This document shows, one piece after another, positions 3,448 to 64,000 of a stretch of DNA of 64,000 nucleotides. Under the pieces are notes generated by a model. The model was not told where the DNA came from. It did not search any database and worked only from the letters and a program-made list of their open reading frames with translations. Positions within the stretch are counted from its first letter, which is position 1, and each line of letters starts with the position of its first letter. Origin of the DNA: Escherichia coli (GTDB taxonomy: Bacteria > Pseudomonadota > Gammaproteobacteria > Enterobacterales > Enterobacteriaceae). The stretch lies in the NCBI RefSeq assembly GCF_030013205.1, contig NZ_CP122648.1; one strand, written 5' to 3'. The position numbers and the translations under genes were made by a program.

Positions 3448-3470
3448 AGCCGGTTCACTCCGGCTTTTTG
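3448..3470 (+). terminator. Intrinsic terminator after the 74-aa membrane protein gene
   Basis: Hairpin AGCCGG-TTCACT-CCGGCT followed by TTTTT. Confidence 0.5.
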
Positions 3471-3820: not shown

Positions 3821-3850
3821 GGTATCCTGCGCAAAACTAAGGAGGTTGGT

Positions 3851-4039: not shown

Positions 4040-4056
4040 CCATCCATGGCTTTCCG

Positions 4057-7706: not shown

Positions 7707-7716
7707 TGATTACCCC

Positions 7717-8409: not shown

Positions 8410-8411
8410 GG

Positions 8412-8870
8412 CTATCTCCCGTGCTTCAGGAAGTCGATTAGTTCTTCGCGTGTGGCGCTGTAAAACGTCACGTCATCCACGCCTTTGAAGTATTTCTTGA
8501 TGGTTCCTACACGCTTAAGGCCAATCATTGCGCAGTACATCTGCCCGTGGCGGAATTTGCGTGCAGCGAACGATGTGACGCACTGAACGGTGGTGTTAGT
8601 CAGAATGTATCGCCAGAACGCCAGCCCGATTTCCTTGCTGAAGCCGCGAATCTCTGGCAGGTACATGGCGTGGCAATCAAAGGTCAGCGGCTGAATCTCC
8701 TGATAGTAAACAATTCCGCCGAACTGCCCGTGCACGTTCACCTCAAAGTAACGGCATTCAGGCTTGTAGTCGTATCCATCGCCGTTGTTGCTCCCGGCGA
8801 TAATGTCAGGGTGATTTCCTACTGCTTCGATCAGGTCGATGTTTCGCGTTGGTTTGAAATGAATCATCAC
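8412..8870 (-). CDS. Phage protein between needle and ejection genes (gp14 position)
   Basis: 152-aa ORF, start overlapping the needle gene stop. Assignment is by synteny only. Confidence 0.5.
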
Positions 8871-9688: not shown

Positions 9689-9838
9689 GTTACCAACATC
9701 AGTGCCCTGTGCGATAACGTAAAGCAGATACGACTGCGAGAAGATATTGCGTGGAAGGACTGATGTGTCGAGCCGTGTAGAGCATTGTTCGTGCCATTGT
9801 CTTCTCCCAATAAAAATGGGGCCGAAGCCCCACCAAAA

Positions 9839-11092: not shown

Positions 11093-11110
11093 GCTTAATG
11101 CTCCGATAGG

Positions 11111-12004: not shown

Positions 12005-12094
12005 TTGTTACCCCTGTTTACTCGATGTTCAGCCCATCGGAAGGCAATAGGGTGCCAGGCCTCATAAAGACAGCCATTGCACGTTATGGGTTAA

Positions 12095-14293: not shown

Positions 14294-14294
14294 A

Positions 14295-15710
14295 TCAACC
14301 TACACCACAAGGAATTGAGTAACTGGAATAGTCGGGTTGCGCAGCCGACTCTGGGCAATGCATACACATCATCAGCGCATCAGCCAGGTTAGGAGATGGA
14401 ATACCGAGCTTCTGCTTCATTTCGACCTTAGTCATAAGCTCCAGCTTCCCGTTGTTATTGAATTTGCGCTGAATCTGCGTCAGTTCTGCAAACAGCTTCT
14501 CCAGCATCTTCTCGCCTATCGCTTCTTTGTCAAAACTCAGCATGTCGTCGGGGTCCGCATACTCACCGTGAACAACCGCCCGATATGTCAGATACAGCCT
14601 GTCAGCCAGCGCGTAATAGAATTGCGCTCGCTTATTGCGGAATACATCGCCAATAGTGCGAACGTTGTCGCCCTGTACGGCTTCATCAGCCCATGCTCCG
14701 GCCTGATAAGGCGAATCTTCATCAAATGGCGATTCGCTGCCCTTGAACATCGTGGCGGTGATTTTCTTACCGGAGAACGCTTCCGCTGTCTGTCTGCGTA
14801 GACCTGCACCAACACCATCACCATCCCACAGGTAATGGTCAGCGCCGTCTTCAATAGCCAGCGAAGTAGCCCAGTCAGCACCCTCGTTGATGTCCATCAG
14901 CAGGCCTTCGGCAATGCGCTTAACAACCGAACCGTGACGCGATGCATAACCTTTAGCATCTGGCCCTGTATCTGATGGGTCATGTGCAGAAACAACCGCG
15001 CCTTTCGCTTTCCATCCGAGTTTCTTGTGCGCATCGGTTGCGGCTTCAAGCCATTCACGTTTGATGATTGCCATATCACTTGCGCTTACTGGCTCACCAA
15101 GCCAGATGTGACGATACAGTGTCTGATTTCTGCGTTTACACTCTTCCATCTCCAGACGGAGAACTTCAGGAAAATGCGGGTTGTCGGTGTAGTTCACCGT
15201 CAGCAGGCAAATATCATCGGGAGGATTTACAACGAATCGCTGATAGGTATCGTCGAGGATGTTCTTCGGGTTAAAGCTCACCCATATTTCGGAAAACGGC
15301 TTGCGGATGGTTGGTATCAGGATGTCCCATGATTCCTTTGTTACCGCTTCCGCTTCTTCCACCCAGCAGATATCAATGCCTTCTAGCGATTTAATCTTCG
15401 TTGGGTTGTTTTTTATGCCGTAGAACATGAATTCAGCATTCGTTCCGAGATGACGAATCATTGAACGCTGAATTTCAAACTCAGCCGAATACCCTTCACG
15501 CTCGATGGTGTCTTCAAGCAACCGGATTACCGAATCGCTGATACTGTTTTGCAGTTCACGAGCGCAGAGAATACGCACAGGCTGCCGACGCGCCGCTTCA
15601 ACAAGCAGCCTCGCAATTGCCCATGACTTACCGCTACCTCGACCGCCTTTGGCGACTTTGTAGCGATGCGCCTCAATGAACGGTTCAAAGATAGGATTAA
15701 TCGAGGTCAT
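14295..15710 (-). CDS. Terminase large subunit
   Basis: 471 aa with Walker A-like KGGRGSGKS near the N-terminus; sits between terS and portal. Confidence 0.9.
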   Translation of the reverse strand: MTSINPIFEPFIEAHRYKVAKGGRGSGKSWAIARLLVEAARRQPVRILCARELQNSISDSVIRLLEDTIEREGYSAEFEIQRSMIRHLGTNAEFMFYGIKNNPTKIKSLEGIDICWVEEAEAVTKESWDILIPTIRKPFSEIWVSFNPKNILDDTYQRFVVNPPDDICLLTVNYTDNPHFPEVLRLEMEECKRRNQTLYRHIWLGEPVSASDMAIIKREWLEAATDAHKKLGWKAKGAVVSAHDPSDTGPDAKGYASRHGSVVKRIAEGLLMDINEGADWATSLAIEDGADHYLWDGDGVGAGLRRQTAEAFSGKKITATMFKGSESPFDEDSPYQAGAWADEAVQGDNVRTIGDVFRNKRAQFYYALADRLYLTYRAVVHGEYADPDDMLSFDKEAIGEKMLEKLFAELTQIQRKFNNNGKLELMTKVEMKQKLGIPSPNLADALMMCMHCPESAAQPDYSSYSIPCGVG

Positions 15711-16147
15711 TTTCCGAATAGAGTGCTCATCGGTGATGTTTCAATCTGAATTGCGCCGCCGTCTTTGCCTGTTAGCTCGTGATCAACCTTGTCGCGCCAT
15801 TTATCCTTCTGTCGGTTCTTAAGCCAGAAGATGGCAGCGGTTGTATCAGGCGGGTAATACTTCTCAAGCGGAGTTTCGACAATTCTGTTTTCAATAACAC
15901 GAATATCGATGTCTGGAGCCACGAAGCCCATAGCGCGTTGATAAAGACGATCACTAACTTCTGCATCAGCGACGGCCTTACCCTTTTTTATGGACTCCGA
16001 AAACTTAGGATAATCAATCTTCCACTTGTTAATAGTTGACTCACTGACTTCAAAGAAATCAGCAAGTTCTGCATCGGTGTAGCCCAGCAAGCACAGTTTG
16101 CGTGCCTGTTCGGCATACGCCTCTTGATACTTTGTTGGGCGCGCCAT
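15707..16147 (-). CDS. Terminase small subunit
   Basis: 146 aa with N-terminal HTH-like region, overlapping the terL start. Confidence 0.8.
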   Translation of the reverse strand: MARPTKYQEAYAEQARKLCLLGYTDAELADFFEVSESTINKWKIDYPKFSESIKKGKAVADAEVSDRLYQRAMGFVAPDIDIRVIENRIVETPLEKYYPPDTTAAIFWLKNRQKDKWRDKVDHELTGKDGGAIQIETSPMSTLFGK

Positions 16148-16149
16148 GT

Positions 16150-16392
16150 TTATGCTCCGGTGGTGAACAGGTCTAACGCTTCCTTCGATTTACGCACCGC
16201 TTCGATAGTGCGGGTCGTGATATCCGAATTAGCGCCGCCTGACTGGAAGTGAATTTTGAATAGTTCAAGCTTCAGCTCGTCAGTGCCAATGAACTGAAAT
16301 GCTTCTTCTGCGGCTGCGTTCTGGTTCATGACCAGTTTGTAAATCTCTAACTGGAATTTCTGTTCTTCAGTCATGGGAATAATCTCTGCCAT
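16150..16392 (-). CDS. Hypothetical phage protein upstream of terS
   Basis: 80-aa ORF tightly packed against terS. Confidence 0.45.
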   Translation of the reverse strand: MAEIIPMTEEQKFQLEIYKLVMNQNAAAEEAFQFIGTDELKLELFKIHFQSGGANSDITTRTIEAVRKSKEALDLFTTGA

Positions 16393-16495
16393 TGTTGGCT
16401 CCGTTTATCCGTTAAAAGGGATATCAGTTAAGTTATCCCGTGTAGGGTATAAGCCATTATCAAAGCCACTCTGTAGGGAATGGCTTTTGTAATAA

Positions 16496-16876
16496 CTACT
16501 GTTCGCTTAGCTTCTGCTTCAGCAAGTAACCTTCGAGCATCCAGATTTTGTTTACAGCATTCTGCCGGGCAATCTTCCGACCAATTTCTGCATCAAAGTT
16601 TTCCGGGCTTGCACAGGCACTCTCTCCGGTAACGGTGAAGCCATTCTTCAGCACCAGTACGCAGAAAGTGAGCAACTTCAATGGTGATAAATCACGATCG
16701 CCTTCTTCTGGTTTTTCCCTGCCACAATATTCGTTGCTGGAAATGGCACCATTTCGTCCATCATAAGCAGTAAAGTAATGCTCGCTTTTAATCACGTCTT
16801 CGATGTGCTGCGGGGTGATTCGCGGTGCCGTTTTGCCTTTCTCAACGATTTCTTTTTCGATTTGCTGGTCGTTCAT
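16496..16876 (-). CDS. Phage protein of unknown function (possibly Gp49/Sf6 gp66-like)
   Basis: 126-aa ORF between the lysis remnant and terS; family assignment is recalled from position only and is unverified. Confidence 0.5.
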   Translation of the reverse strand: MNDQQIEKEIVEKGKTAPRITPQHIEDVIKSEHYFTAYDGRNGAISSNEYCGREKPEEGDRDLSPLKLLTFCVLVLKNGFTVTGESACASPENFDAEIGRKIARQNAVNKIWMLEGYLLKQKLSEQ

Positions 16877-17114
16877 AATTATGACCCTGTGGAGTGGTTG
16901 CTTGATTAGGATGTCTTTCCATCAGTCCGCCACCACAAAGAATCTTTTTTGCCATAAGGCTGGAGGTTCATCTTTCAGTGGCTGCCAGTGTTATTTCCCC
17001 ACTTACTGGCTTGGGTTGTTTCGCTGTACTGCCGTAACTGGTTACCCAGAATAAATTTTGGTTTCATTATCAAGCCCATCCGTAGATAGGCTTTGTAATG
17101 AACTGGCTCTTATC

Positions 17115-17267
17115 TCAACGCAGCCCCTTACCGCGCGCCAGATGCTCAATATCAAGCATCAGCAATGAGATGTTTAATCTGGATTCACTCCAGAAGTGAT
17201 CACCACCCTGTCTACAGAGCCAGATGTGAAGGATGATGAGTAGAATTATCGCTATCATCGAAGGCAT
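17115..17267 (-). CDS. Possible small ORF (50 aa) downstream of Rz remnant
   Basis: Hand translation MPSMIAIILLIILHIWLCRQGGDHFWSESRLNISLLMLDIEHLARGKGLR with AGGA RBS; start overlaps the Rz stop. Could be spurious. Confidence 0.25.
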   Translation of the reverse strand: MPSMIAIILLIILHIWLCRQGGDHFWSESRLNISLLMLDIEHLARGKGLR

Positions 17268-17480
17268 TGCGTCCTGATGTACTCCTGCAGGTAGTTAACC
17301 TGCGCGGTTATCCTGTCGATTCCACTTCGGAGACGGTAATAATTGAGTTCAGCATCTGCTGTAAGTCTTGGGCTTTCTCCATCGCCCATGCCGCTGGCTC
17401 TGGTCGTTGACTTTGCACAGGTGGCGGCGACTTGCAGGCGCTTACGACCAGCAGAAACATCAGCACGGAGACTTTCGATA
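17255..17480 (-). pseudogene. Rz: Rz (i-spanin) remnant, C-terminal part only
   Basis: ESLRADVSAGRKRLQVAATCAKSTTRASGMGDGESPRLTADAELNYYRLRSGIDRITAQVNYLQEYIRTQCLR aligns with the recalled lambda Rz C-terminus. The upstream part of the ORF has no Rz-like TM/N-terminal region and overlaps xis antisense. Confidence 0.65.
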
Positions 17481-17499
17481 TCGAAGCAGAGGACATCAA
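17308..17499 (-). CDS. Rz1: Rz1-like o-spanin lipoprotein, embedded in Rz frame +1
   Basis: Signal peptide with lipobox (LLVVSAC) followed by a proline-rich segment KSPPPVQSQRPEPAAW; the true start may be an internal Met. Confidence 0.65.
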   Translation of the reverse strand: MMSSASISKVSVLMFLLVVSACKSPPPVQSQRPEPAAWAMEKAQDLQQMLNSIITVSEVESTG

Positions 17500-17587
17500 C
17501 GACTGCTATAACCACTGGATGATATGGGCGCAGATAGCGCATGCAGACGTAACAAATATTCGAATTGAAGAACTGAAAGAACACCAA

Positions 17588-17608
17588 ACCGCCTGATGGC
17601 GGTTTTTT
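17588..17608 (+). terminator. Terminator-like hairpin upstream of xis
   Basis: ACCGCC-TGAT-GGCGGT followed by TTTTTT. Confidence 0.4.
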
Positions 17609-17635
17609 CTTGCGTGTAATTGCGGAGACTTTGCG

Positions 17636-17854
17636 ATGTACTTGACACTTCAGGAGTGGAACGCACGCCAGCGGCGCCCAAGAAGCCTTGAAACAGTTCG
17701 TCGATGGGTACGCGAGTGCAGGATATTCCCTCCTCCGGTTAAGGATGGAAGAGAGTATCTGTTCCACGAATCAGCGGTAAAGGTTGACTTAAATCGACCA
17801 ATAACAGGTAGCCTTTTGAAGAGGATCGGAAATGGGAAGAAGGCGAAGTCATGA
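17636..17854 (+). CDS. xis: Excisionase, lambda Xis-type
   Basis: 72 aa, MYLTLQEWNARQRRPRSLETVRRWVRECRIFPPPVKDGREYLFHESAVKVDLNRPITGSLLKRIGNGKKAKS matches recalled lambda Xis; overlaps the int start. Confidence 0.93.
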   Translation: MYLTLQEWNARQRRPRSLETVRRWVRECRIFPPPVKDGREYLFHESAVKVDLNRPITGSLLKRIGNGKKAKS

Positions 17855-18902
17855 GCGCCGGGATTTACCCCCTAACCTTTATATAAGAAACAATGGATAT
17901 TACTGCTACAGGGACCCAAGGACGGGTAAAGAGTTTGGATTAGGCCGAGACAGGCGAATCGCAATCACTGAAGCTATACAGGCCAACATTGAGTTATTTT
18001 CAGGACACAAACACAAGCCTCTGACAGCGAGAATCAACAGTGATAATTCTGTTACGTTACATTCATGGCTTGATCGCTACGAAAAAATCCTCGCCAGCAG
18101 AGGAATCAAGCAGAAGACACTCATAAATTACATGAGCAAAATTAAAGCAATAAGGAGGGGGCTACCTGATGTTCCACTTGAAGACATCACCACAAAAGAA
18201 ATTGCGGCAATGCTCAATGGATACATAGACGAGGGCAAGGCGGCGTCAGCCAAGTTAATCAGATCAACACTGAGCGATGCATTCCGAGAGGCAATAGCTG
18301 AAGGCCATATAACAATAAACCCGGTCGCTGCCACTCGCGCTGCAAAATCAGAGGTAAGGAGATCAAGACTTACGGCTGACGAATACCTGAAAATTTATCA
18401 AGCAGCAGAATCATCACCATGTTGGCTCAGACTTGCAATGGAACTGGCTGTTGTTACCGGGCAGCGAGTTGGTGATTTATGCGAAATGAAGTGGTCTGAT
18501 ATCGTAGATGGATATCTTTATGTCGAGCAAAGCAAAACAGGTGTAAAAATTGCCATCCCTACAACATTGCATGTTGATGCTCTCGGGATATCAATGAAGG
18601 AAACACTTGATAAATGCAAAGAGATTCTTGGCGGAGAAACCATAATTGCATCTACTCGTCGTGAACCGCTTTCATCCGGCACAGTATCAAGGTATTTTAT
18701 GCGCGCACGAAAAGCATCAGGTCTTTCCTTCGAAGGGGATCCGCCCACCTTTCACGAGTTGCGCAGTTTGTCTGCAAGACTCTATGAGAAGCAGATAAGC
18801 GATAAGTTTGCTCAACATCTTCTCGGGCATAAGTCGGACACCATGGCATCACAGTATCGTGACGACAGAGGCAGGGAGTGGGACAAAATTGAAATCAAAT
18901 AA
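17832..18902 (+). CDS. int: Tyrosine integrase, lambda Int-type
   Basis: 356 aa, near-identical to recalled lambda Int from MGRRRSHERRDLPPNLYIRNNGYYCYRDPRTGKEFGLGRDRRIA to HLLGHKSDTMASQYRDDRGREWDKIEIK. Confidence 0.95.
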   Translation: MGRRRSHERRDLPPNLYIRNNGYYCYRDPRTGKEFGLGRDRRIAITEAIQANIELFSGHKHKPLTARINSDNSVTLHSWLDRYEKILASRGIKQKTLINYMSKIKAIRRGLPDVPLEDITTKEIAAMLNGYIDEGKAASAKLIRSTLSDAFREAIAEGHITINPVAATRAAKSEVRRSRLTADEYLKIYQAAESSPCWLRLAMELAVVTGQRVGDLCEMKWSDIVDGYLYVEQSKTGVKIAIPTTLHVDALGISMKETLDKCKEILGGETIIASTRREPLSSGTVSRYFMRARKASGLSFEGDPPTFHELRSLSARLYEKQISDKFAQHLLGHKSDTMASQYRDDRGREWDKIEIK

Positions 18903-44356: not shown

Positions 44357-44432
44357 TGGTGGGTCGTGCAGGATTCGAACCTGCGACCAATTGATTAAAA
44401 GTCAACTGCTCTACCAACTGAGCTAACGACCC
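44357..44432 (-). tRNA. tRNA-Lys(UUU)
   Basis: Reverse complement equals the recalled E. coli tRNA-Lys (GGGTCGTTAGCTCAGTTGGTAGAGCAGTTGACTTTTAATCAATTGGTCGCAGGTTCGAATCCTGCACGACCCACCA). Confidence 0.95.
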
Positions 44433-44465
44433 CTTGCGGGATTATGCTGCTTTAATCATTCAGGA

Positions 44466-44541
44466 TGGTGGGTCGTGCAGGATTCGAACCTGCGACCAAT
44501 TGATTAAAAGTCAACTGCTCTACCAACTGAGCTAACGACCC
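44466..44541 (-). tRNA. tRNA-Lys(UUU)
   Basis: Identical copy of the 76-nt tRNA-Lys sequence. Confidence 0.93.
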
Positions 44542-44590
44542 ATACGGGTGTTACCTGAAAGATTTCTACTCGAAACCAATCTTTAAGATT

Positions 44591-44660
44591 GGTGGGTCGT
44601 GCAGGATGACTCGCTTCGCTCGCCCTACGGGCCGTTGCTGGCGCAACGTTATCCTTCACG
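44591..44660 (-). repeat. Spacer unit: truncated tRNA-Lys 3' end (17 nt) fused to a ~55-bp conserved repeat
   Basis: TGGTGGGTCGTGCAGGA followed by TGACTCGCTTCGCTCGCCCTACGGGCCGTTGCTGGCGCAACGTTATCCTTCACG; second copy at 44877-44950. Confidence 0.5.
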
Positions 44661-44687
44661 CTTAACATCTGAGTTTGATGTTAAAAC

Positions 44688-44763
44688 TGGTGGGTCGTGC
44701 AGGATTCGAACCTGCGACCAATTGATTAAAAGTCAACTGCTCTACCAACTGAGCTAACGACCC
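44688..44763 (-). tRNA. tRNA-Lys(UUU)
   Basis: Identical copy of the 76-nt tRNA-Lys sequence. Confidence 0.93.
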
Positions 44764-44765
44764 GG

Positions 44766-44841
44766 TGGTGGGTGATGACGGGATCGAACCGCCGACCCCC
44801 TCCTTGTAAGGGAGGTGCTCTCCCAGCTGAGCTAATCACCC
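44766..44841 (-). tRNA. tRNA-Val(UAC)
   Basis: Reverse complement equals the recalled E. coli tRNA-Val1 (GGGTGATTAGCTCAGCTGGGAGAGCACCTCCCTTACAAGGAGGGGGTCGGCGGTTCGATCCCGTCATCACCCACCA); 2 nt from the adjacent tRNA-Lys. Confidence 0.93.
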
Positions 44842-44876
44842 GATACTACGCTGGATACTACAACTAACTAGGTTAG

Positions 44877-44950
44877 TGGTGGGTCGTGCAGGATGACTCG
44901 ACTTCGTCTCGCCCTTCGGGCCGTTGCTGACGCAACGTTATCCTTCACGT
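44877..44950 (-). repeat. Spacer unit: truncated tRNA-Lys 3' end fused to the conserved repeat (second copy)
   Basis: TGGTGGGTCGTGCAGGA followed by TGACTCGACTTCGTCTCGCCCTTCGGGCCGTTGCTGACGCAACGTTATCCTTCACG. Confidence 0.5.
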
Positions 44951-44976
44951 TTTACTACCGCTTCCACCTTAGCGAT

Positions 44977-45052
44977 TGGTGGGTCGTGCAGGATTCGAAC
45001 CTGCGACCAATTGATTAAAAGTCAACTGCTCTACCAACTGAGCTAACGACCC
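44977..45052 (-). tRNA. tRNA-Lys(UUU), first gene of the operon
   Basis: Identical 76-nt tRNA-Lys sequence. Confidence 0.93.
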
Positions 45053-52579: not shown

Positions 52580-54148
52580 TTAGCGTGCCGGCTGAGTAGT
52601 CGTGGAAGACTGCTCAAAGTGATAGCGACCGGTTTTCAGGCTGCTTGGGCCGAGGCGTGCATACTTGAACATTAAGAACAATTCTGCCACCAGGAACAGG
52701 GTATACAGGCCGCAAATCAGCACCATTGAGAAGATGAGATCGCCTGCGGTCAGTGACGAGTTCGCCACAGCTGTCGGCAGCACTTCACCGATAGCCCACG
52801 GTTGGCGGCCATATTCAGCCACGAACCAGCCCGCTTCTACAGCAATCCACGGCAGCGGAATACCGTACAGCGCGGCGCGCAGCAGCCATTTTTTCTCGCC
52901 AATGCGGTTGCGGATGACACTCCAGAAAGAGAGCGCGATGATTGCCAGCAGCAGGAAGCCACACGCCACCATGATACGGAACGCGAAGTACAGCGGCGCT
53001 ACACGCGGAATGGAGTCTTTGGTTGCCTGTTGAATCTGCGCTTCAGTCGCATCCGCCACGTTTGGCGTATAGCGTTTCAGCAGCAGACCGTAACCGAGGT
53101 CTTTCTTCATGCTATTGAACTGGTCACGAACCGCCTGGTCGGTAGAACCAGAACGCAGTTGTTCGAGCAGAGAGTACGCCTTCATCCCGTTACGAATGCG
53201 TTCTTCATGCTGCACCATCAGCTCTTTCAGGCCGATAACCGGGGTATCCACGGAACGCGTTGCAATGATGCCCAGTGCGTAAGGGATCTGGATTGCAAAT
53301 TTGTTCGTCTCCTCTTCCTGATCAGGAATGCCGAACAGAGTAAAGGCAGCAGGTGCAGGTTGCGTTTCCCACTCGGCTTCAATAGCAGCCAGTTTGGTTT
53401 TCTGCACGTCGCCCATTTCGTAACCAGATTCATCACCCAGAACAATAACAGACAGAACGGCAGCCATACCGAAGCTGGCAGCGATAGCAAAGGAGCGTTT
53501 AGCGAAGGCGAAGTCACGACCTTTCAGCATATACCATGCGCTGATACCGAGGATGAACATCGCGCCAGTCACATAACCAGAGGCTACAGTGTGAACGAAT
53601 TTCACCTGAGCAACCGGGTTAAGCACCAGCTCGGAGAAGCTCACCATCTCCATACGCATAGTTTCAAAGTTGAAATCGGATGCGATTGGGTTTTGCATCC
53701 AGCCGTTCGCAACCAGAATCCACAGTGCGGACAGGTTTGAACCGAGCGCCACCAGCCAGGTGACACACATATGCTGAACTTTACCCAGACGATCCCAACC
53801 GAAGAAGAACAGACCTACAAAGGTGGATTCGAGGAAGAAGGCCATCAGACCTTCGATTGCCAGCGGCGCACCGAAGATATCCCCTACATAGTGGGAATAG
53901 TAAGACCAGTTAGTCCCGAACTGGAACTCCATGGTCAGACCGGTAGCCACACCCAGAGCGAAGTTGATACCAAACAACTTGCCCCAGAACTTGGTCATAT
54001 CTTTATAAATCTGTTTGCCGGAAAGGACGTAGACCGTTTCCATAATGGCCAGCAGGAACGCCATACCGAGCGTCAGTGGCACAAAAAGGAAGTGGTACAT
54101 CGCGGTCAAGGCAAACTGTAAGCGCGACAGTTCGACTATATCTAACAT
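52580..54148 (-). CDS. cydA: Cytochrome bd-I ubiquinol oxidase subunit I
   Basis: Start at [12 protein letters not shown] (522 aa), one codon inside the track ORF. Confidence 0.95.
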
Positions 54149-54953
54149 CATGACTCCTTGCTCATCGCATGAAGACTCCGAGAGTGAACCCCGTTAGAAA
54201 GGGTCACACGCATGCCCCAATACAAAATTATTTGCTCGCCTCTATCGTTGCCATTTCATCAAAAGAGGAAAAGACAATGATAAAAAAGTTACAAATATGT
54301 TAATGAATAAACCAAATTGATCCCGTAATTATATTACGCCGCAAAATCCTTACAATAAACAGGTTTTTATTGAGCAAATTTGCATTTTTCGACAGTGATC
54401 AATTTATAGCGAAATTGTCACGATCTCACCAATTTGATCTACGACAATTTATCGTGTTTTGCAGATTTTTTTCAAGAATTAAAAATTGATTTATATCAAA
54501 ACCAACCAAATATGTTAATTATGTATAAACCATAGATCATTGGTGATTTTATTGTTAATTTATTGTGAAATATTTATGCAACACAATTATTACAATGAAA
54601 AGGTATAGATAAAAAACCAGTGTTTTATTTAACAGAACCGCCTTATCCACTTTTTATAATACCAATTGATTAGATTAGCCAATTTGTTGCTATTTTACAT
54701 AACATATTTTTATCAAAGTTAATTGATTGTTGCGTTTATGAGCACCGGCCGTAAGCCCGTTATGTTATTGTTTCATTAGTAATAATCACTTAAATGTATC
54801 GATGAAACAGGTATGACTTAGCGGGAGTGATTGTTTCTGAGTGAACAGAGACCACTTTCGCCTGATAAATGAAAAATGAGCGATTTTTGCAAGTTAGTTT
54901 TTCTATAGCCGAGTACGCTCAGCGCCTCGCTTGATTACAATGAGGTTGCTGCT
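54149..54953. promoter_or_regulatory. Long AT-rich region upstream of cydA (cydAB control region) merging into accessory DNA
   Basis: About 800 bp of AT-rich non-coding DNA with TTGAT-containing motifs; cydAB is known to have a complex FNR/ArcA-regulated promoter. Individual sites not resolved. Confidence 0.4.
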
Positions 54954-55898
54954 ATGAGTCCTGATAATATCAGTTCTGCTGTCAATCGCTTCTCAGGTTG
55001 GCCATCTAATGATCCTCTAAAAACAGATAAAGAATCAATGACATCACCCATGACTGTGCAGGTAATAAAGATGATTGCCGCCATCCTTGACCCACATCGG
55101 ATAGTCGTTGGAATCGATACACTTTATACAACGCAGCGCGAAACATTTACCTCAGAGAGTCAACAGCTCATTGAATCAGCATTGCAAACACTTCATGTGA
55201 TGAATTTAAATAACCTGGAAACAAATCTCGATGAGGAAGGTCACTATCTGGCTTTTGGATATAACGTTGACACTCCTGACAGAATAACCGTTTCTGCTTA
55301 TAATGAAAAAAAGCCTGGCTGCTATGGCCAATGTCTTTTAATACAGGATGACGAAACAGACTTATTTAACCTGATAAAAGTTAAAATTTTTGAAGCCAGA
55401 CATAATTATGTCGCTCAATTGATGAGCGATCCGGAATTTATGTTCAAATTTAGTTATAGCGCTCAACAAAATAGATTAGAACCTCATCTTCTGGTTCCCA
55501 CTTATTTCCCTCTAAAAACAAACGAACCGGTTACGCAAGAGGATGTACTGTTACTTTATCGTTTCTTTAAAATGGATGGTGATTTTAATATATTAACATC
55601 AGATGAATACATGAGCATCATGACACCTCTGATGAAGTGTGAGCGCAGCATCCACGACCACAACAGGTATGTGACGGGCAAAGATACCCTTCTTCTGGAC
55701 TATCCTCCTTCTGGTAACCAGATATATTTCCATATTTTTCCTGACGAATCAGCAACACTAGTCCTTTATTTTTCAAACAATGACATTGAATGTTTCGTCT
55801 TTGAAAGAGATATTCCGAGCCAGTATCGCTTTTTCAAAATGTTTACCAATCTGGCACTGGTTATTGATCAGTTAACCGATGCCAATCAAATACTTTAA
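54954..55898 (+). CDS. Hypothetical protein (AT-rich accessory gene)
   Basis: 314-aa ORF with GAGG RBS; AT-rich codon usage unlike the flanking core genes; no motif recognised. Confidence 0.55.
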   Translation: MSPDNISSAVNRFSGWPSNDPLKTDKESMTSPMTVQVIKMIAAILDPHRIVVGIDTLYTTQRETFTSESQQLIESALQTLHVMNLNNLETNLDEEGHYLAFGYNVDTPDRITVSAYNEKKPGCYGQCLLIQDDETDLFNLIKVKIFEARHNYVAQLMSDPEFMFKFSYSAQQNRLEPHLLVPTYFPLKTNEPVTQEDVLLLYRFFKMDGDFNILTSDEYMSIMTPLMKCERSIHDHNRYVTGKDTLLLDYPPSGNQIYFHIFPDESATLVLYFSNNDIECFVFERDIPSQYRFFKMFTNLALVIDQLTDANQIL

Positions 55899-55978
55899 TT
55901 TTTATATATTCCCTGTGGCAAATATTGCTAAACAATGCCCGGGGATTAATTTTTATTACTCACGGAAAGATTTAAATA

Positions 55979-56401
55979 ATGATCCCATCTCAAATCTCTT
56001 TCAACACCCTTCCTGTCAATGCAACATACGCTTCAGAGACAACAGTTGACACACAAAAATTCTCTGACATCCTCTACTCAGCGGGGTGTTCCCTAAAGGA
56101 TCTGGCTTATCTGAGCAGATGTCTGGCATCAATACATCCGACTATCGCCAAAAACATTTATGAAACAGAAAATCTCAGCGATCAAAAATTACTACATATT
56201 GATTGCCGTAGTACAAATGAAATCAAGATAAATATCTTTTTTGGTCAACAACGAGAAGGATTAATTGAAATTAGTTCTGACACAGTCATTTTTTCGATAC
56301 TGTCTTCATTGATTGACTCCACCATTTCTAAATTTCAACACCAAAACCCCGTTAACGGTTCTGTAAATCCTGACCTATTGTATGAGGATTATACTGATTA
56401 A
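55979..56401 (+). CDS. Hypothetical protein (AT-rich accessory gene)
   Basis: 140-aa ORF immediately downstream, same strand, acidic C-terminus; no motif recognised. Confidence 0.5.
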   Translation: MIPSQISFNTLPVNATYASETTVDTQKFSDILYSAGCSLKDLAYLSRCLASIHPTIAKNIYETENLSDQKLLHIDCRSTNEIKINIFFGQQREGLIEISSDTVIFSILSSLIDSTISKFQHQNPVNGSVNPDLLYEDYTD

Positions 56402-56948
56402 ATCCCTCCTGTCGCGAAAAATGGCCTGCGTTATTGCCAGACGTAATAAAACTTTTGATTAACGTTTCTCGTACTGGTAGCACCTTCATGTACTTTTCTT
56501 TTTTACGAAAAATCAAAAGAGCTAACAAAGGTCATAATTCGCATGAATCATTAATTATTTGTTATTTTCAACATTATTTTTACATTAAGCAGAGATGAAT
56601 TGCTGTGAAATTCGACTTAACTTTTATGAAATGCATTTACTCATGGCTAAAGCCACGTCACAAAAATGCAAATTAGAAGTTGATCACAATTATCTCAATA
56701 CATCAAATCAAGTTAATTTTAAAAATTTAACATTCATGACATCAGTTGACATAACACACTGAATTAAAATGAGAATTTGAAAACACACTTTAAACAATCA
56801 TTTCCCGAAAGACATTTTGAAAATAGATCAATTGCAACATTACGGTCAGATAAAGACACTCCTGTGATATTAAACCTGTGCCGTTATGAACGGCCATAAA
56901 TACGACGTGTGTAACTTATTTTACTCTCTGTCTTACAAAGGATTACCC

Positions 56949-57398
56949 ATGAAGAAAGCAACACTTGTGATTGGCGTTATTGGCGCGGACTGCCATGCAG
57001 TAGGCAATAAAGTTCTGGACCGCGTTTTTAGCAACCATGGCTTCAGAGTCATTAATCTGGGCGTAATGGTCAGCCAGGACGAATATATTGATGCGGCCAT
57101 TGAAACTGGCGCTGACGCGATTGTCGTCTCCTCTATCTATGGGCATGGCGATATCGATTGTCTGGGCATGCGCGAACGCTGCATTGAGCGTGGGCTGGGT
57201 AACATCCTGCTCTATGTGGGCGGTAACCTGGTGGTCGGAAAACATGACTTCGCTGACGTGGAAACCAAGTTCAAAGAGATGGGATTTGATCGCGTCTTTT
57301 CCCCAAGTCATGACTTAGAAGATGTTTGTCAGCTGATGGCCCACGATATCAACCAACGTCATGACGTTGATACTCGCATTCTTGAAGAGGCAATCTGA
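56949..57398 (+). CDS. Glutamate mutase S (sigma) subunit, B12-binding
   Basis: Starts [23 protein letters not shown] (cobalamin-binding DxHxxG-type motif); about 149 aa; track ORF begins 21 codons upstream. Confidence 0.85.
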
Positions 57399-58786
57399 TG
57401 CAAATCGTCTCTGTCGATATTGGTTCGACGTGGACCAAAGCAGCCCTCTTCACCCGGGAGGGGGACGCGTTAACGTTGGTTAACCACGTTCTGACCCCAA
57501 CCACCACCCATCATCTGGCGAAGGGGTTTTTCTCCAGCCTGGACCAGGTGTTAAACGTAGATGATGCCCTCCCCCTGTTAAACAGTGGTGAGGTTGCATT
57601 GAAGTATTCCTCCTCTGCCAAAGGTGGGCTGGCGGTTGCCGCAATGGGATTGGTGCCTTCTATCACCCTGGAAACCGCGAAAGTAACCGCTCACTCTGCG
57701 GGTGCTAAAATTGCGCAATATTACGCCTACAAGCTGAACCGCCGTGATATCCAGGCACTGGAAGAAACGCAGCCCGATATTCTCTTGTTCACCGGCGGCA
57801 CCGATGGCGGAGAAGAAAGCTACGGACTGAATAACGCCCGTGTGTTGGCAGAATCCAAACTCGACTGCGCCATTATTTATGCCGGAAACCGGGATATTCA
57901 GGACGAGGTGCAGGAGGTCCTCGGGCATAAAGACCTGACCATCGTCGACAACGTTCTGCCCGATCTTGACCATCCGAACCCTTTAGCCGCACGCCAGGCT
58001 ATTTGCGACATATTCCTTAAACGCATCGTTAAAGGGAAAGGGCTGGATGTCATTGTTGATAAAACAGGCGAAGAACCAATGCCGACACCATGGACGGTCT
58101 TTGAACTGGTTAAGGCAATCAGTAACGTCGATCACAGCTGGAAAGAGTTCATGCTGATCGACATGGGCGGCGCAACCACCGATGTTTATTCCGCCTGTGC
58201 CAACACGCTCTCGCCCGACACCGTTCTACACGGCGTACCGGAACCCTTCGTGAAACGGACGGTGGAAGGCGATCTGGGAATGCGCGTCTCGGCAATGGTG
58301 GTTGGTGAAAGTGCGAAAGAGTTAGTCAATGTGAATTTTGCTCAGCAACCCGCACAGCTGGACGCTTTTTATCATTACCTCCGCCATCTAGTCGCTCATC
58401 CCGACTACTTACCCGCGAATGCAGAAGAAAAATATTTCGATACCGTCCTGGCCGGAGTGTGTGTGGGTTATGCCACCGAAAGACATGCGGGCACCAAAAA
58501 AGAGGTCTGCACCTGCGTCGGCAATGTCGATTTACAGATGGGACGTGATCTGACAACCGTGCGTAAAGTCGTGGGTTCCGGCGGATGGCTCTCGCGTGCC
58601 AGTCAGTTCGATATGCATCACTGGTTGAAATACCGCGAGTTAAACGACGACGGTAAACGCATTCTCTTACCGACCGAATTTGAATATTACCGCGATTCCC
58701 GGGGGCTATTACCACTGCTGGCAAACGTCGCCAGAGTCGATCCGCTGGCCGCCGCGCGCACCAGTATTCAATGCTTAACCCTATAA
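57398..58786 (+). CDS. Glutamate mutase accessory protein (GlmL/MutL-like)
   Basis: 462-aa ORF between the S and E subunit genes, the position of glmL in clostridial glutamate mutase operons. Confidence 0.75.
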   Translation: MQIVSVDIGSTWTKAALFTREGDALTLVNHVLTPTTTHHLAKGFFSSLDQVLNVDDALPLLNSGEVALKYSSSAKGGLAVAAMGLVPSITLETAKVTAHSAGAKIAQYYAYKLNRRDIQALEETQPDILLFTGGTDGGEESYGLNNARVLAESKLDCAIIYAGNRDIQDEVQEVLGHKDLTIVDNVLPDLDHPNPLAARQAICDIFLKRIVKGKGLDVIVDKTGEEPMPTPWTVFELVKAISNVDHSWKEFMLIDMGGATTDVYSACANTLSPDTVLHGVPEPFVKRTVEGDLGMRVSAMVVGESAKELVNVNFAQQPAQLDAFYHYLRHLVAHPDYLPANAEEKYFDTVLAGVCVGYATERHAGTKKEVCTCVGNVDLQMGRDLTTVRKVVGSGGWLSRASQFDMHHWLKYRELNDDGKRILLPTEFEYYRDSRGLLPLLANVARVDPLAAARTSIQCLTL

Positions 58787-58804
58787 CAATTAAGGCTGCA
58801 ATCA

Positions 58805-60250
58805 ATGGAACTTCGAAATAAGAAATTAACCCATGACGAATTCATGACCGAGCGGCAACAGGTACTGAAAACCTGGGAAACCGGCAAGGATGTTGAAAAC
58901 TTTGAAGATGGCGTTAAATACCAACAAACCATCCCTGAGCATAAACGCTTCTCTCTTGCGCTGCTGAAAGCAGACAAGGAAGGTAAAACCCTTAGCCAAC
59001 CGCGCGCAGGTGTGGCGCTGATGGACGAACACATCGAACTACTGAAAACACTACAAGAAGAGTGCGATCTGCTGCCGAGCACTATCGATGCATATACCCG
59101 TCTGAATCGGTACGAAGAAGCGGCTGTAGGGATTAAAAAATCCATCGAAGCCGGAACCTCTAAACTGAACGGTTTGCCGGTAGTTAACCATGGCGTCGCA
59201 GCTTGCCGTCGCCTCACCGAAGCCCTGCAAAAACCGCTACAGATCCGCCACGGCACGCCAGATGCGCGTCTGCTGGCTGAAATCTCGATGTCCAGCGGCT
59301 TTACCAGTTACGAAGGCGGCGGCATTTCCTACAACATTCCGTATGCCAAACGCGTAACGCTGGAAAAATCGATCCGCGACTGGCAGTACTGCGACCGTTT
59401 AATGGGGATGTATGAAGAACACGGGATCCGCATCAACCGCGAACCGTTTGGCCCACTAACGGGTACGCTGATCCCGCCGTTTATCTCGCACTCTATCGCG
59501 ATCATCGAAGGCTTGCTGGCGCTGGAACAGGGTGTGAAATCTATCACCGTTGGTTATGGACAGGTCGGCAGCCTGACGCAGGATGTTGCGGCGATCCAGT
59601 CTCTGCGTGAACTTGCACACGAATATTTTCAGAGCTATGGCTATACCGACTATGAATTAAGTACCGTGTTTCACCAGTGGATGGGCGGCTTTCCGGAAGA
59701 CGAATCGAAAGCGTTCGCTATTATCTCCTGGGGCGCAGCCGTCGCGGGGATGTCTGGTGCCACCAAAGTCATCACCAAAAGTCCGCACGAAGCCTGGGGT
59801 ATCCCGACTGCCGCTGCCAACATTCAGGGGCTGAAAGCCTCCCGCCAGATGCTCAACATGGTCAACGAGCAGAAATTCCCGCCGTGCCCTGCGGTTGAAC
59901 TGGAAATTGAACTGATTAAGAGCGAGGTTCGCGCAGTACTGAATAAAGTGTTCGAACTGGGTAATGGTGATATTGCGCGCGGTACGGTGCTGGCATTTGA
60001 AGCGGGCGTACTGGATGTGCCGTTTGCACCAGCCGCGTGTAACGCGGGCAAAATTCTTCCGGTCCGTGACAACACCGGCGCGATACGCGTACTGGAAGCC
60101 GGAGCCGTTCCATTGCCAAAAGATATTCTCGACCTCCACCACGATTACGTTGCTGAACGCGCACGCTTTGAAGGACGCCAACCGACATTCCAGATGGTTG
60201 TAGATGACATCAATGCTGTATCCCACAGTAAATTAATAGGAAGACCATAA
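58805..60250 (+). CDS. Glutamate mutase E (epsilon) subunit
   Basis: 481-aa ORF following the glmL-like gene; operon context. Confidence 0.8.
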   Translation: MELRNKKLTHDEFMTERQQVLKTWETGKDVENFEDGVKYQQTIPEHKRFSLALLKADKEGKTLSQPRAGVALMDEHIELLKTLQEECDLLPSTIDAYTRLNRYEEAAVGIKKSIEAGTSKLNGLPVVNHGVAACRRLTEALQKPLQIRHGTPDARLLAEISMSSGFTSYEGGGISYNIPYAKRVTLEKSIRDWQYCDRLMGMYEEHGIRINREPFGPLTGTLIPPFISHSIAIIEGLLALEQGVKSITVGYGQVGSLTQDVAAIQSLRELAHEYFQSYGYTDYELSTVFHQWMGGFPEDESKAFAIISWGAAVAGMSGATKVITKSPHEAWGIPTAAANIQGLKASRQMLNMVNEQKFPPCPAVELEIELIKSEVRAVLNKVFELGNGDIARGTVLAFEAGVLDVPFAPAACNAGKILPVRDNTGAIRVLEAGAVPLPKDILDLHHDYVAERARFEGRQPTFQMVVDDINAVSHSKLIGRP

Positions 60251-61491
60251 TGAAAATAAAACAGGCCCTGTTCACCGCTGGCTACTCCTCATTCTATTTC
60301 GATGACCAGCAGGCGATAAAAAACGGAGCGGGTCATGACGGCTTTTTTTATACCGGGGAGCCAGTAACACAGGGGTTTAACGCCGTACGTCAGGCCGGGG
60401 AGTGCGTATCGGTACAGTTGATTCTGGAAAACGGCGCGGTCGCCGTAGGTGACTGTGCTGCCGTACAGTATTCCGGGGCAGGTGGTCGCGATCCACTGTT
60501 CCTCGCGGAGCACTTTATTCCGTTCCTCAACGACCATATCAAGCCATTACTGGTAGGCCGCGATGTGGATACTTTCCTGCCGAATGCCCGTTTCTTCGAC
60601 AAATTGCGTATTGACGGCAACTTGCTGCATACCGCCGTGCGCTACGGATTATCACAGGCGCTGCTTGATGCTACCGCGCTGGCAACCGGCCGTCTGAAAA
60701 CTGAAGTGGTCTGTGATGAATGGCAGTTGCCACGCGTGGCGGAATCCATTCCATTATTTGGTCAGAGCGGCGACGATCGATATATCGCCGTCGATAAGAT
60801 GATCCTTAAGGGCATCGACGTGCTGCCCCATGCACTGATTAATAACGTCGAAGAGAAACTGGGCTTTAAAGGTGAAAAACTGCGCGAATATGTCCGCTGG
60901 CTGTCGGATCGTATTCTGAGCAAGCGCACCAGCGCACGCTACCACCCTACCCTGCACATCGATGTATACGGCACTATCGGTCTGATCTTCGATATGGATC
61001 CGCTTCGCTGTGCGCAATACATCGCCAGCCTGGAAAAAGAAGCGCAAGGCCTGCCGCTCTACATTGAAGGTCCGGTCGATGCCGGTAACAAGCCCGATCA
61101 AATTCGCCTGCTGACCGCGATTACCAAAGAGCTGACGCGCCTCGGTTCCGGCGTGAAACTAGTGGCCGATGAATGGTGTAACACCTACCAGGATATTGTT
61201 GATTTCACCGATGCCGCCAGTTGCCACATGGTGCAAATCAAAACCCCGGATCTGGGCAGTATTCACAACATCGTCAATGCAGTTCTTTATTGCAACAGCC
61301 ACAGCATGGAAGCGTACCAGGGCGGCACCTGCAATGAAACTGATGTCAGTGCCCGCACCTGTGTCCACGTCGCCCTTGCCGCTCGCCCCATGCGTATGCT
61401 GGTAAAACCAGGGATGGGCTTTGACGAAGGCCTCGATATCGTCTTCAACGAAATGAATCGTACTATCGCGCTGTTGCAGGCTAAGGATTAA
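60250..61491 (+). CDS. 3-methylaspartate ammonia-lyase
   Basis: 413-aa enolase-superfamily-size ORF immediately after the mutase genes, overlapping the glmE-like stop. Confidence 0.8.
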   Translation: MKIKQALFTAGYSSFYFDDQQAIKNGAGHDGFFYTGEPVTQGFNAVRQAGECVSVQLILENGAVAVGDCAAVQYSGAGGRDPLFLAEHFIPFLNDHIKPLLVGRDVDTFLPNARFFDKLRIDGNLLHTAVRYGLSQALLDATALATGRLKTEVVCDEWQLPRVAESIPLFGQSGDDRYIAVDKMILKGIDVLPHALINNVEEKLGFKGEKLREYVRWLSDRILSKRTSARYHPTLHIDVYGTIGLIFDMDPLRCAQYIASLEKEAQGLPLYIEGPVDAGNKPDQIRLLTAITKELTRLGSGVKLVADEWCNTYQDIVDFTDAASCHMVQIKTPDLGSIHNIVNAVLYCNSHSMEAYQGGTCNETDVSARTCVHVALAARPMRMLVKPGMGFDEGLDIVFNEMNRTIALLQAKD

Positions 61492-61494
61492 CAA

Positions 61495-62865
61495 ATGGCT
61501 CGTTCTTTTAAAGTCTTATCGCCTACGGCAATCCTCGGGTATGGATTCCCGGAGGAGAGCTTCCGCAAAGCGATGGCAGAATCGCCCGATCTGATCGCCG
61601 TTGATGCTGGCTCTTCCGATCCTGGCCCCCACTACCTCGGGGCGGGCAAACCGTTTACCGATCGCGCAGGGGTCAAGCGCGATCTGCGCTATATGATCAC
61701 CGCAGGCGTGCAAAATAATATACCGGTGGTGATCGGAACGGCCGGCGGTTCTGGTGCCGCTCCACACCTGGAGTGGTGCCGAGAAATAATTCATGAGATT
61801 GCCCGGGAAGAGCACCTCTCGTTCTCGATGGCGCTGATCCCGGCAGACGTTGACAAAGCCATCGTCCACCAGGCGCTGGATAACGGCAAAATCACGGCGC
61901 TGGATTTTGTCCCGCCGTTAACCCACGACGCGATTGACGAAAGTACGTATATCGTCGCGCAAATGGGCATCGAACCCTTCCAGCAGGCGCTGAAAGAAGG
62001 CGCGCAAGTGGTGCTGGGCGGGCGCGCTTACGACCCGGCCTGCTTTGCTGCGCTACCGATCATGCAAGGCTTTGATGAAGGTCTGGCGCTGCATTGTGGG
62101 AAAATCCTTGAATGCGCGGCAATCGCCGCAACGCCCGGCTCAGGCTCTGACTGTGCGATGGGCATCATTGATGACAACGGCTTTACGCTGAAGACATTTA
62201 ATCCGAAGCGTAAATTTACCGAAACGTCAGCAGCTGCACACACACTGTATGAGAAATCCGATCCCTACTTCCTGCCAGGACCTGGCGGCGTGTTGAACCT
62301 GAAAAGCTGCACATTTAAAGCGGTCAATGACGGCGAAGTGTACGTCAGCGGTTCTAAGCATGAAGAAACGCCGTATTCCCTGAAACTGGAAGGTGCGCGA
62401 CGGGTGGGCTTCCGCTGTCTGACCATCGCCGGAACGCGCGACCCGATCATGATCGCCGGGATCGATAAAATCATCGATGAAGTCAAAACCAGCGTTTCGC
62501 GTAACCTGTCGCTCGACGATGACAGCATTCACATCAATTTCCACCTGTACGGCAAAAACGGGGTGATGGGCGACCATGAACCGATGCAAACTGCCGGGCA
62601 TGAGCTGGGGATTGTCCTTGATGTAGTTGCACCGACCCAGGAAATTGCCAACAGCGTTTGCTCGCTGGTGCGCTCTACCATGCTGCACTACGGCTATGAA
62701 AACCGCATCGCTACCGCAGGTAATCTGGCGTTCCCGTTCTCCCCTTCTGATATTCAGGGCGGGCCGGTATACGAATTTTCCATATATCACCTGATTGAAG
62801 CCAACGACGCTCTGCGTTTTGATTTCCATATTGAACAGGTGACGCCAGAAGGAGTTCAGGCATGA
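61495..62865 (+). CDS. DUF1446 / AtuA-like protein, function unknown
   Basis: 456-aa ORF 3 bp after the ammonia-lyase gene; family assignment recalled, not verified. Confidence 0.6.
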   Translation: MARSFKVLSPTAILGYGFPEESFRKAMAESPDLIAVDAGSSDPGPHYLGAGKPFTDRAGVKRDLRYMITAGVQNNIPVVIGTAGGSGAAPHLEWCREIIHEIAREEHLSFSMALIPADVDKAIVHQALDNGKITALDFVPPLTHDAIDESTYIVAQMGIEPFQQALKEGAQVVLGGRAYDPACFAALPIMQGFDEGLALHCGKILECAAIAATPGSGSDCAMGIIDDNGFTLKTFNPKRKFTETSAAAHTLYEKSDPYFLPGPGGVLNLKSCTFKAVNDGEVYVSGSKHEETPYSLKLEGARRVGFRCLTIAGTRDPIMIAGIDKIIDEVKTSVSRNLSLDDDSIHINFHLYGKNGVMGDHEPMQTAGHELGIVLDVVAPTQEIANSVCSLVRSTMLHYGYENRIATAGNLAFPFSPSDIQGGPVYEFSIYHLIEANDALRFDFHIEQVTPEGVQA

Positions 62866-63061
62866 AACAGTCAATTGTCTCACTGGCGCAAGTCATTCGT
62901 TCGAAAAATGCCGGACCTTACGAACTGGTTTTAGATATTTTATTTAAAACCAAAGAAAACTATGAGCGAGTCAAATCATCAGGGCAATTAACCCCAGAAC
63001 TGATTGGGTGATGCTGCCAACTTACTGATTTAGTGTATGATGGTGTTTTTGAGGTGCTCCA

Positions 63062-63337
63062 GTGGCTTCTGTTTCTATCAGCTGTCCCTCCTGTTCAGCT
63101 ACTGACGGGGTGGTGCGTAACGGCAAAAGCACCGCCGGACATCAGCGCTATCTCTGCTCTCACTGCCGTAAAACATGGCAACTACAGTTCACTTACGCCG
63201 CCTCTCAGCCCGGTACGCACCAGAAAATCATTGATATGGCCATGAATGGCGTCGGATGTCGCGCCAGTGCACGCATTATTGGCGTTGGCCTCAACACGAT
63301 TTTCCGCCACTTAAAAAACTCAGGCCGCAGTCGGTAA
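63062..63337 (+). CDS. insA: IS1 InsA
   Basis: 91 aa [43 protein letters not shown] (zinc finger). Confidence 0.93.
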
Positions 63338-63759
63338 CCTCGCGCATACAACCGGGCAGTGATGTGATTGTCTGCGCTGAAATGGACGAACAGTGGGGCT
63401 ACGTCGGTGCTAAATCACGTCAGCGCTGGCTGTTTTACGCGTATGACAGGATGCGGAGGACGGTTGTGGCGCACGTCTTCGGTGAACGCACTCTGGCCAC
63501 ACTGGAGCGTCTTCTGAGCCTGCTGTCGGCCTTTGAGGTCGTGGTATGGATGACGGATGGCTGGCCGCTGTATGAATCACGCCTGAAGGGAAAGCTGCAC
63601 GTTATCAGCAAGCGTTATACTCAGCGCATTGAGCGGCATAACCTGAATCTGAGACAACATCTGGCAAGGCTGGGACGGAAGTCACTGTCGTTCTCAAAAT
63701 CGGTGGAGCTGCATGACAAGGTCATCGGGCATTATCTGAACATAAAACACTATCAGTAA
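63256..63759 (+). CDS. insB: IS1 InsB frame (expressed as InsAB' by -1 frameshift)
   Basis: 167-aa frame overlapping the insA 3' end; A-run slippery site before the insA stop. Confidence 0.9.
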
Positions 63760-64000
63760 GTTGGAGTCATTACCACTGATTGCGCGCTTATATCATGTTG
63801 AACCTGACTTTATTCACCGTATTGTCTGGTTTGATCCTTCTAACGCAGTAAAAATCGTCATGCCACGAGATATTATCTCCGGGAATGTAGGTGACAATGA
63901 TGTCTATGGTGCACAGCAACATGCACCTTTATTAAATATGAGTTTCGATTTGTAAAAATCCGAATACTTTTAGCCAACTGACATCCCGTCACTTATTGCA

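Follow-up and report, generated by a model that had tools for sequence, protein, structure and literature searches.

Glutamate mutase and methylaspartase genes are co-localised in enterobacteria with a gene for an extra class I fumarase, FumD, as described by Kronen & Berg in 2015 (PLoS One; PMC4682846). In that report, the FumD protein of O157:H7 was characterised as a mesaconase/fumarase, the DUF1446 gene located 3' of the methylaspartase gene (mal) had no assigned function, and the fate of (S)-citramalate was unsolved. Here, we analysed a 64-kb stretch of DNA (the window), which matches the chromosome of the porcine Escherichia coli strain ETEC4079 (NZ_CP122643.1) at 100% identity and contains a glutamate mutase and methylaspartase gene cluster from position 56949 onwards. 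Such a cluster is no novelty, as it was published in 2015 and is routinely named by the NCBI prokaryotic genome annotation pipeline (PGAP). Gene identity and pathway logic indicate that it very probably represents the known enterobacterial methylaspartate route, by which glutamate would be converted to pyruvate, acetate and ammonia. In ETEC4079, the gene for one subunit of the predicted last enzyme is split by IS1.

The closest described system is the enterobacterial glutamate fermentation cluster (PMC4682846), in which glmS, glmL (mutL), glmE, mal, the DUF1446 gene, gltP, fumD, cobA/cobO and a LysR-type transcriptional regulator gene occur in the same order as here. In contrast to the published cluster, cmlB, which encodes a DUF4387 protein, is split by IS1. 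Since that publication, the DUF1446/DUF4387 pair has been named citramalate lyase CmlAB in the PDB entries 9ERQ and 9EVF. The same four initial genes, in the same order, encode the glutamate mutase (MutS, MutL and MutE; 1CCW, 1I9C and 6H9E) and the methylaspartase (1KCZ) of Clostridium cochlearium and C. tetanomorphum. The DxHxxG motif, the arginine claw and Glu171 of GlmE, and Lys331, His194 and the Mg2+ ligands of methylaspartate ammonia-lyase (MAL) are shared with the clostridial enzymes, although identity reaches 56-61% only. Later steps also differ: clostridia feature a mesaconase of two subunits, MesAB, and, together with CitCXG, a citramalate lyase of the CitDEF type, whereas the enterobacterial cluster features the single-chain FumD and the unrelated CmlAB (PMC4682846). 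Glutamate mutase and methylaspartase are the first enzymes of the haloarchaeal methylaspartate cycle as well (PMC4682846). In that cycle, however, mesaconate serves acetate assimilation after activation to mesaconyl-CoA, whereas here the neighbours are mesaconase and citramalate lyase genes. A role in the methylaspartate cycle was rejected, as the cluster contains neither CoA-transferase nor hydratase genes.

Glutamate mutase and methylaspartase genes

The list of open reading frames (ORFs) includes four complete ORFs on the same strand, the coordinates of which coincide with those of the original prediction, a reading made from the sequence alone:

56949-57398, plus strand: glmS, B12-binding sigma subunit of glutamate (methylaspartate) mutase, 149 aa (NF002612 equivalog; similar to 1I9C)
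57398-58786, plus strand: glmL, accessory protein of glutamate mutase (described as a reactivating chaperone), 462 aa (TIGR01319, NF040745)
58805-60250, plus strand: glmE, catalytic epsilon subunit of glutamate mutase, 481 aa (TIGR01503; similar to 6H9E_B/1CCW_B)
60250-61491, plus strand: mal, 3-methylaspartate ammonia-lyase of the enolase superfamily, 413 aa (TIGR01502; similar to 1KKO and 1KCZ)

Proteins were assigned to families with NCBIfam equivalog models, by comparing bit scores with the curated cut-offs. GlmS scores 252 bits with NF002612 (methylaspartate mutase S; cut-off 110) and 246 bits with TIGR01501 (cut-off 136). GlmL reaches 510 bits with the equivalog NF040745, the cut-off of which is 475, and 890 bits with the family model TIGR01319 (cut-off 204). 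The scores of GlmE with TIGR01503 (methylaspartate mutase E) and of Mal with TIGR01502 (methylaspartate ammonia-lyase) are 863 and 542 bits, against cut-offs of 390 and 286, respectively. E-values for the four products range from 1e-76 to 1e-268, and the family matches are therefore not due to chance.

Alignment to the Clostridium enzymes, the check by which the assignment could have failed, is not poor: GlmS is 61% identical to C. cochlearium GlmS (1I9C), GlmE is 59% identical over its full length to C. cochlearium GlmE (6H9E_B/1CCW_B), and Mal is 56% identical to C. tetanomorphum methylaspartase (1KCZ). Mal is much more similar to the MAL of Citrobacter amalonaticus (1KKO/1KKR; 93% identity over 413/413 residues, gap-free). 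The latter is an orthologue from another genus, and none of the 29 substitutions between the two proteins falls at the active-site positions checked.

Key residues are conserved in all three enzymatic components. The DxHxxG motif of S subunits, which we take from established knowledge of the family to be the base-off/His-on cobalamin-binding motif, is retained in GlmS as D14-x-H16-x-x-G19 in the alignment to 1I9C_A. In GlmE, residues R67, R99, R148, E170 and Y180 correspond to R66, R100, R149, E171 and Y181 of the C. cochlearium protein, and all five are conserved; the three arginines are presumably those that bind the substrate in the E subunit, E171 and Y181 being presumably essential as well. 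In Mal, K331, H194, Q329, Q172, D238, E273, D307, C361 and L384 are conserved with the same numbering. Going by published structures, we take K331 and H194 to be the catalytic bases and D238, E273 and D307 to be the Mg2+ ligands. With the equivalog cut-offs passed and the key residues conserved, the reading of glmS-glmL-glmE-mal as genes for glutamate mutase and for methylaspartate ammonia-lyase is upheld. glmS and glmE are confirmed as genes of an adenosylcobalamin (AdoCbl)-dependent glutamate mutase, and mal as a methylaspartase gene, catalysis by their products being predicted.

The four genes were originally described as overlapping. This holds for two of the three junctions, as glmS/glmL and glmE/mal overlap by 1 nt, but not for glmL and glmE, which are separated by 18 nt. 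The glmS start at 56949 is favoured over that of a longer ORF beginning at 56886, as it aligns with residue 1 of clostridial GlmS; an AAGGA ribosome-binding site is found upstream of it.

Predicted citramalate lyase genes and the IS1 insertion

The operon runs past position 61491. The cmlA start is located 3 nt after mal, and cmlB overlaps cmlA by 4 nt. The following features occupy this region:

61495-62865, plus strand: cmlA, AtuA/DUF1446-family large subunit of the CmlAB citramalate lyase, intact, 456 aa (PDB 9ERQ/9EVF chain A)
62862-63006, plus strand: cmlB 5' fragment, codons 1-48 of 105 (DUF4387 small subunit), ending at the IS1 junction; a pseudogene in PGAP
63007-63774, plus strand: IS1 element of 768 bp, with insA/insB on the plus strand, inverted repeats and a target duplication; an IS1 family transposase with programmed frameshift in PGAP
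63775-63955, plus strand: cmlB 3' fragment, starting with the right copy of the target duplication; the frame is restored on IS1 removal

CmlA is 91.4% identical over 456/456 residues (E = 4e-290) to chain A of 9ERQ/9EVF, which the PDB lists under the name "Citramalate lyase, subunit A (cmlA)". Intact CmlB, a DUF4387 protein of 105 aa in strain SC418, matches chain B of 9ERQ, "Citramalate lyase, subunit B (cmlB)", with E = 5e-57. Unlike the structurally described CmlAB (9ERQ/9EVF), the CmlB encoded here is cut after residue 48 by IS1. A preprint (bioRxiv 10.64898/2026.01.16.699985) uses the Raoultella planticola enzyme Cml (cmlAB, a gift of I. Berg), which is said to split citramalate directly into pyruvate and acetate. 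PGAP names the product of 61495-62865 "acyclic terpene utilization AtuA family protein", and neither CmlA nor DUF4387 proteins are covered by an NCBIfam model. Genome annotation of cmlAB is thus behind the structural data, in which the proteins are named.

The original prediction suggested a search for mesaconase and citramalate lyase genes beyond the window. This was correct for fumD, which lies beyond it, but not for citramalate lyase, as cmlAB is the next gene pair and is located inside the window. In the source genome, the window is followed by genes annotated by PGAP as a GltP/DctA-like symporter, a class I fumarate hydratase of the FumD type, cobO and a convergent LysR-family gene, and then by sucD. 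The fumarate hydratase scores 1282 bits with NF011921 (cut-off 1060). The full order is hence glmS-glmL-glmE-mal-cmlA-cmlB-gltP(like)-fumD-cobO, plus the convergent LysR-family regulator gene. A strong hairpin is located directly 3' of cobO, and no promoter-like site was found between cmlB and gltP. The tight junctions, the hairpin and the missing internal promoter are consistent with glmS to cobO forming a single transcription unit.

All other genes of the cluster are full length, and cmlB alone is interrupted; the original prediction had not linked this break with the operon. An 8-bp target duplication (ACTGATTG) flanks IS1, the left copy at 62999-63006 and the right copy at 63775-63782, and the element is bounded by the terminal inverted repeats GGTGATGCTGCCAACTTACTGAT and GGTAATGACTCCAACTTACTGAT. 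With the intact SC418 gene (locus L002, 20763-21080) as the reference, translation of cmlB meets a stop codon just inside IS1; taking out IS1 together with one 8-bp copy gives back the complete 105-aa CmlB frame. In 17 genomes that are essentially 100% identical (at least 99.98% by bit score), the matches are exactly 776 bp shorter and lack IS1. The insertion is therefore recent, and unique to this strain among complete genomes. Presumably, the heteromeric citramalate lyase could not be made from this locus, and with cmlB split the last step of the pathway has most likely been lost in ETEC4079. IS1 insertions are polar. Judging from this general knowledge, expression of the symporter, fumD and cobO genes may also be reduced.

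Disruptions are found in other lineages as well. In the enteropathogenic E. coli (EPEC) strain E2348/69 (locus L004, 5901-8291), a deletion has left glmS alone, adjoining ISEc13 and a fragment of mngA. In E. coli VE-T9 (locus L068, 14763-16104), IS1 is inserted elsewhere in cmlB, and gltP-fumD-cobO-lysR are deleted into rtcB. These independent losses mediated by insertion sequences suggest that selection for the pathway is weak or conditional in E. coli.

Distribution and genomic setting of the cluster

Of 5426 complete E. coli genomes, 1135 (20.9%) carry the cluster. Most carriers (1121 genomes) keep at least 80% of it, at 95-100% identity, and 14 hold less than 80%. O157:H7 strains match positions 56949-62998 at 98.2-98.3% nucleotide identity. 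In the 2015 survey of Kronen & Berg, the cluster was found in 26.5% of E. coli and in 90.6% of O157:H7 strains (PMC4682846). Both counts agree with the initial statement that the pathway is limited to some E. coli lineages.

Beyond the species, a CmlA scan of one genome per species returned 61 loci. Of the 54 loci that extend far enough upstream, 53 feature glmS-glmL-glmE-mal directly upstream of cmlA, with tight spacing; in the 54th (L065), the order is unchanged and the spacing slightly wider. The succession of cmlA and cmlB is kept in 58 of 58 loci. As the order is kept across 54 loci, glmSLE-mal-cmlAB is regarded as a conserved six-gene module. Citrobacter, Klebsiella, Raoultella, Salmonella arizonae/diarizonae, Enterobacter, Yersinia, Hafnia, Morganella and Budvicia are among the nearer taxa; distant ones include Azoarcus/Aromatoleum, Telmatospirillum, Desulfotomaculum, metagenome-assembled genomes of Clostridiales, and Dictyoglomaceae. 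Compared with Escherichia, Klebsiella, Citrobacter and Salmonella, the cluster proteins show 83-97% identity, and at 0.50-0.56 the operon has an enterobacterial GC content.

On the cydA side, homology to K-12 ends 373 bp upstream of this gene, at window position 54524; beyond the window, it is found again from the sucD/sdhX terminator onwards. The strain-variable segment between these points is 14.7 kb long (14.0 kb without IS1), and at this site K-12 carries the 5.9-kb mngR-mngA-mngB genes. The mngAB genes are present in 3884 genomes. Neither an integrase nor border (att-type) repeats were found at the segment ends. The cydA-sucD position of the cluster is common to Klebsiella, Citrobacter, Salmonella, Pseudescherichia and other Escherichia species. 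Taken together, the GC content, the 83-97% identity and the shared position speak for an old enterobacterial locus that has undergone repeated loss, and against a recent insertion.

The two cassettes may also occur together. For instance, E. coli O169:H41 (locus L067, 1-18470) features cydA, followed by the glm cluster-lysR-rtcB-mngB-mngA-mngR-sucD, and in Citrobacter amalonaticus S646 (locus L049, 1-4800) mngBAR is followed by the glm cluster. EPEC E2348/69 retains remnants of both, and in some E. coli hut genes (hutH) adjoin lysR. The cydA-sucD interval is a mosaic hotspot. The initial view that accessory DNA beside cydA has replaced what K-12 carries there stands as far as the segment is strain-variable; simple replacement of mngRAB was rejected, as the glm cluster and mngRAB coexist in genomes such as that of O169:H41.

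The left end of the segment, located between the cydA control region and glmS, is distinct in composition:

54525-56948, plus strand: left end of the strain-variable segment, an AT-rich module of 35% GC with two ORFans and a spacer
54954-55898, plus strand: hyp1, ORFan of 314 aa, no family match
55979-56401, plus strand: hyp2, ORFan of 140 aa, no family match

The AT-rich spacer between hyp2 and glmS is 547 bp long, and a repeat search in it yielded short, chance-level matches only. E. coli genomes with the ORFan module number 1138, compared with 1135 for the glm cluster, and no ORFan homologues were detected in the fetched loci of other genera. Neither hyp1 nor hyp2 belongs to a family in Pfam, NCBIfam, PADLOC or PHROGs, and among 5.8 billion proteins the ORFans are represented by 5 near-identical protein clusters only. 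AlphaFold2 models of hyp1 and hyp2 have a mean predicted local distance difference test score (pLDDT) of 48 and 47, respectively, too poor for a fold search. Paralogy of the two proteins was not detected in a direct comparison (E = 2.1).

Elsewhere in the window, a P22-like prophage spans positions 1-18902 and abuts ybhC. It features portal, terminase, P22-type capsid and tail needle genes, Arc-family repressors, an excisionase and, at 17832-18902, a tyrosine integrase; several of its genes, including those for a lytic transglycosylase and Rz/Rz1, are pseudogenised. A tRNA array located beside nadA (44357-45052) contains five genes (Lys, Lys, Lys, Val, Lys), and its counterpart in SC418 contains seven plus the RtT small RNA. 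The copy-number variation presumably results from recombination between repeated tRNA genes.

Predicted pathway and alternative readings

The proposed route would begin with import of glutamate by the GltP-like symporter. AdoCbl-dependent GlmS and GlmE would rearrange glutamate to (2S,3S)-3-methylaspartate, with GlmL keeping the mutase active and CobO adenosylating salvaged corrinoid. Methylaspartase would then remove ammonia to yield mesaconate, which the class I fumarase FumD would hydrate to (S)-citramalate, and CmlAB would cleave citramalate directly to pyruvate and acetate. In ETEC4079, glutamate mutase and methylaspartase would be encoded by intact genes, and the predicted CmlAB step would be genetically broken. 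Gene identity, integrity, residues, order and distribution were computed here; the FumD and CmlAB activities come from the literature and the PDB, and a single transcription unit and its expression were inferred.

Several points weigh against the proposal that the cluster provides a working methylaspartate route. O157:H7 strain ATCC 700728 showed neither methylaspartase activity nor growth on glutamate, and Kronen & Berg found no condition in which the genes were expressed (PMC4682846). The activity of CmlAB is a prediction based on PDB molecule names and the description in one preprint. Consensus scans of positions 54100-64000 revealed no promoter above chance upstream of glmS, as counts equalled the shuffled expectation; the same was true of terminator counts in this interval. 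A search of positions 54000-64000 against Rfam (E <= 1) detected no cobalamin riboswitch or other known RNA. To our knowledge, E. coli is unable to make B12 de novo, and the pathway therefore depends on external corrinoids. Finally, polarity of the insertion on gltP, fumD and cobO is presumed from what is generally known of IS1.

In a rival reading, the cluster is a cryptic, decaying remnant, intact on paper but unused, in which IS1 marks one step of ongoing loss; the four genes from glmS to mal would then play no physiological part in this strain. We consider this reading tenable but doubtful. The silence of the genes in O157:H7, where neither expression nor activity was seen under any condition tried (PMC4682846), speaks for it, as do the AT-rich upstream region with no recognisable promoter, the independent disruptions in EPEC E2348/69 (ISEc13), VE-T9 (IS1) and ETEC4079 (IS1), and the 14 of 1135 carriers with less than 80% of the cluster. 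Yet decay is hard to reconcile with the 1121 carriers that retain 80% or more of the cluster and are 95-100% identical in it, or with full-length ORFs in the four genes from glmS to mal, the checked catalytic residues of which are all conserved. Moreover, several genera share the gene order and the cydA-sucD position, with proteins 73-93% identical, and this conservation implies purifying selection over the long term; the dedicated LysR regulator suggests that expression is inducible rather than absent. Alternatively, the pathway may be truncated in this strain, so that glutamate would end as excreted mesaconate or (S)-citramalate and not as pyruvate and acetate. The state of the genes would allow this, with glmS, glmL, glmE, mal and cmlA intact and cmlB split, and secretion of citramalate was raised as a possibility by Kronen & Berg (PMC4682846). 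E. coli FumA and FumB also hydrate mesaconate, and citramalate could therefore form even if a polar effect reached fumD. A truncated pathway is nonetheless unlikely: it needs expression, which is unproven, and IS1 polarity could lower the transporter and CobO, and hence flux. Furthermore, IS1 is confined to a single genome among near-identical relatives, and the insertion therefore looks like a recent accident and not an adaptation.

A third reading, that E. coli recently acquired the cluster from clostridia by horizontal transfer, with insertion beside cydA, is most improbable. The pathway is classically clostridial, and K-12, like about 79% of the complete E. coli genomes, lacks the cluster. 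However, the proteins are 56-61% identical to their clostridial counterparts, whereas identity to the Escherichia, Klebsiella, Citrobacter and Salmonella proteins is 83-97%; the operon GC of 0.50-0.56 is enterobacterial; the cydA-sucD location is common to several genera; FumD and CmlAB differ from the clostridial MesAB/CitDEF set; and the borders carry no integrase or att-type repeat. Identity, GC content, shared location and downstream enzymes effectively refute recent import. The reading of the cluster as the known enterobacterial methylaspartate route is retained.

In that route, the citramalate-consuming step left open in 2015 would be encoded within the same operon, by cmlAB. ETEC4079 on the one hand, and K_EC180 and related strains on the other, constitute a natural isogenic pair for testing the pathway in vivo. 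A further, joint conjecture, to which we give little credence, is that ETEC4079, as a natural cmlB null, would excrete mesaconate or (S)-citramalate if the cluster were expressed in the pig gut, and that the Escherichia-restricted ORFan pair could regulate or silence the cluster as a module specific to this lineage. If true, such a module might account for the silence of the E. coli genes under laboratory conditions.

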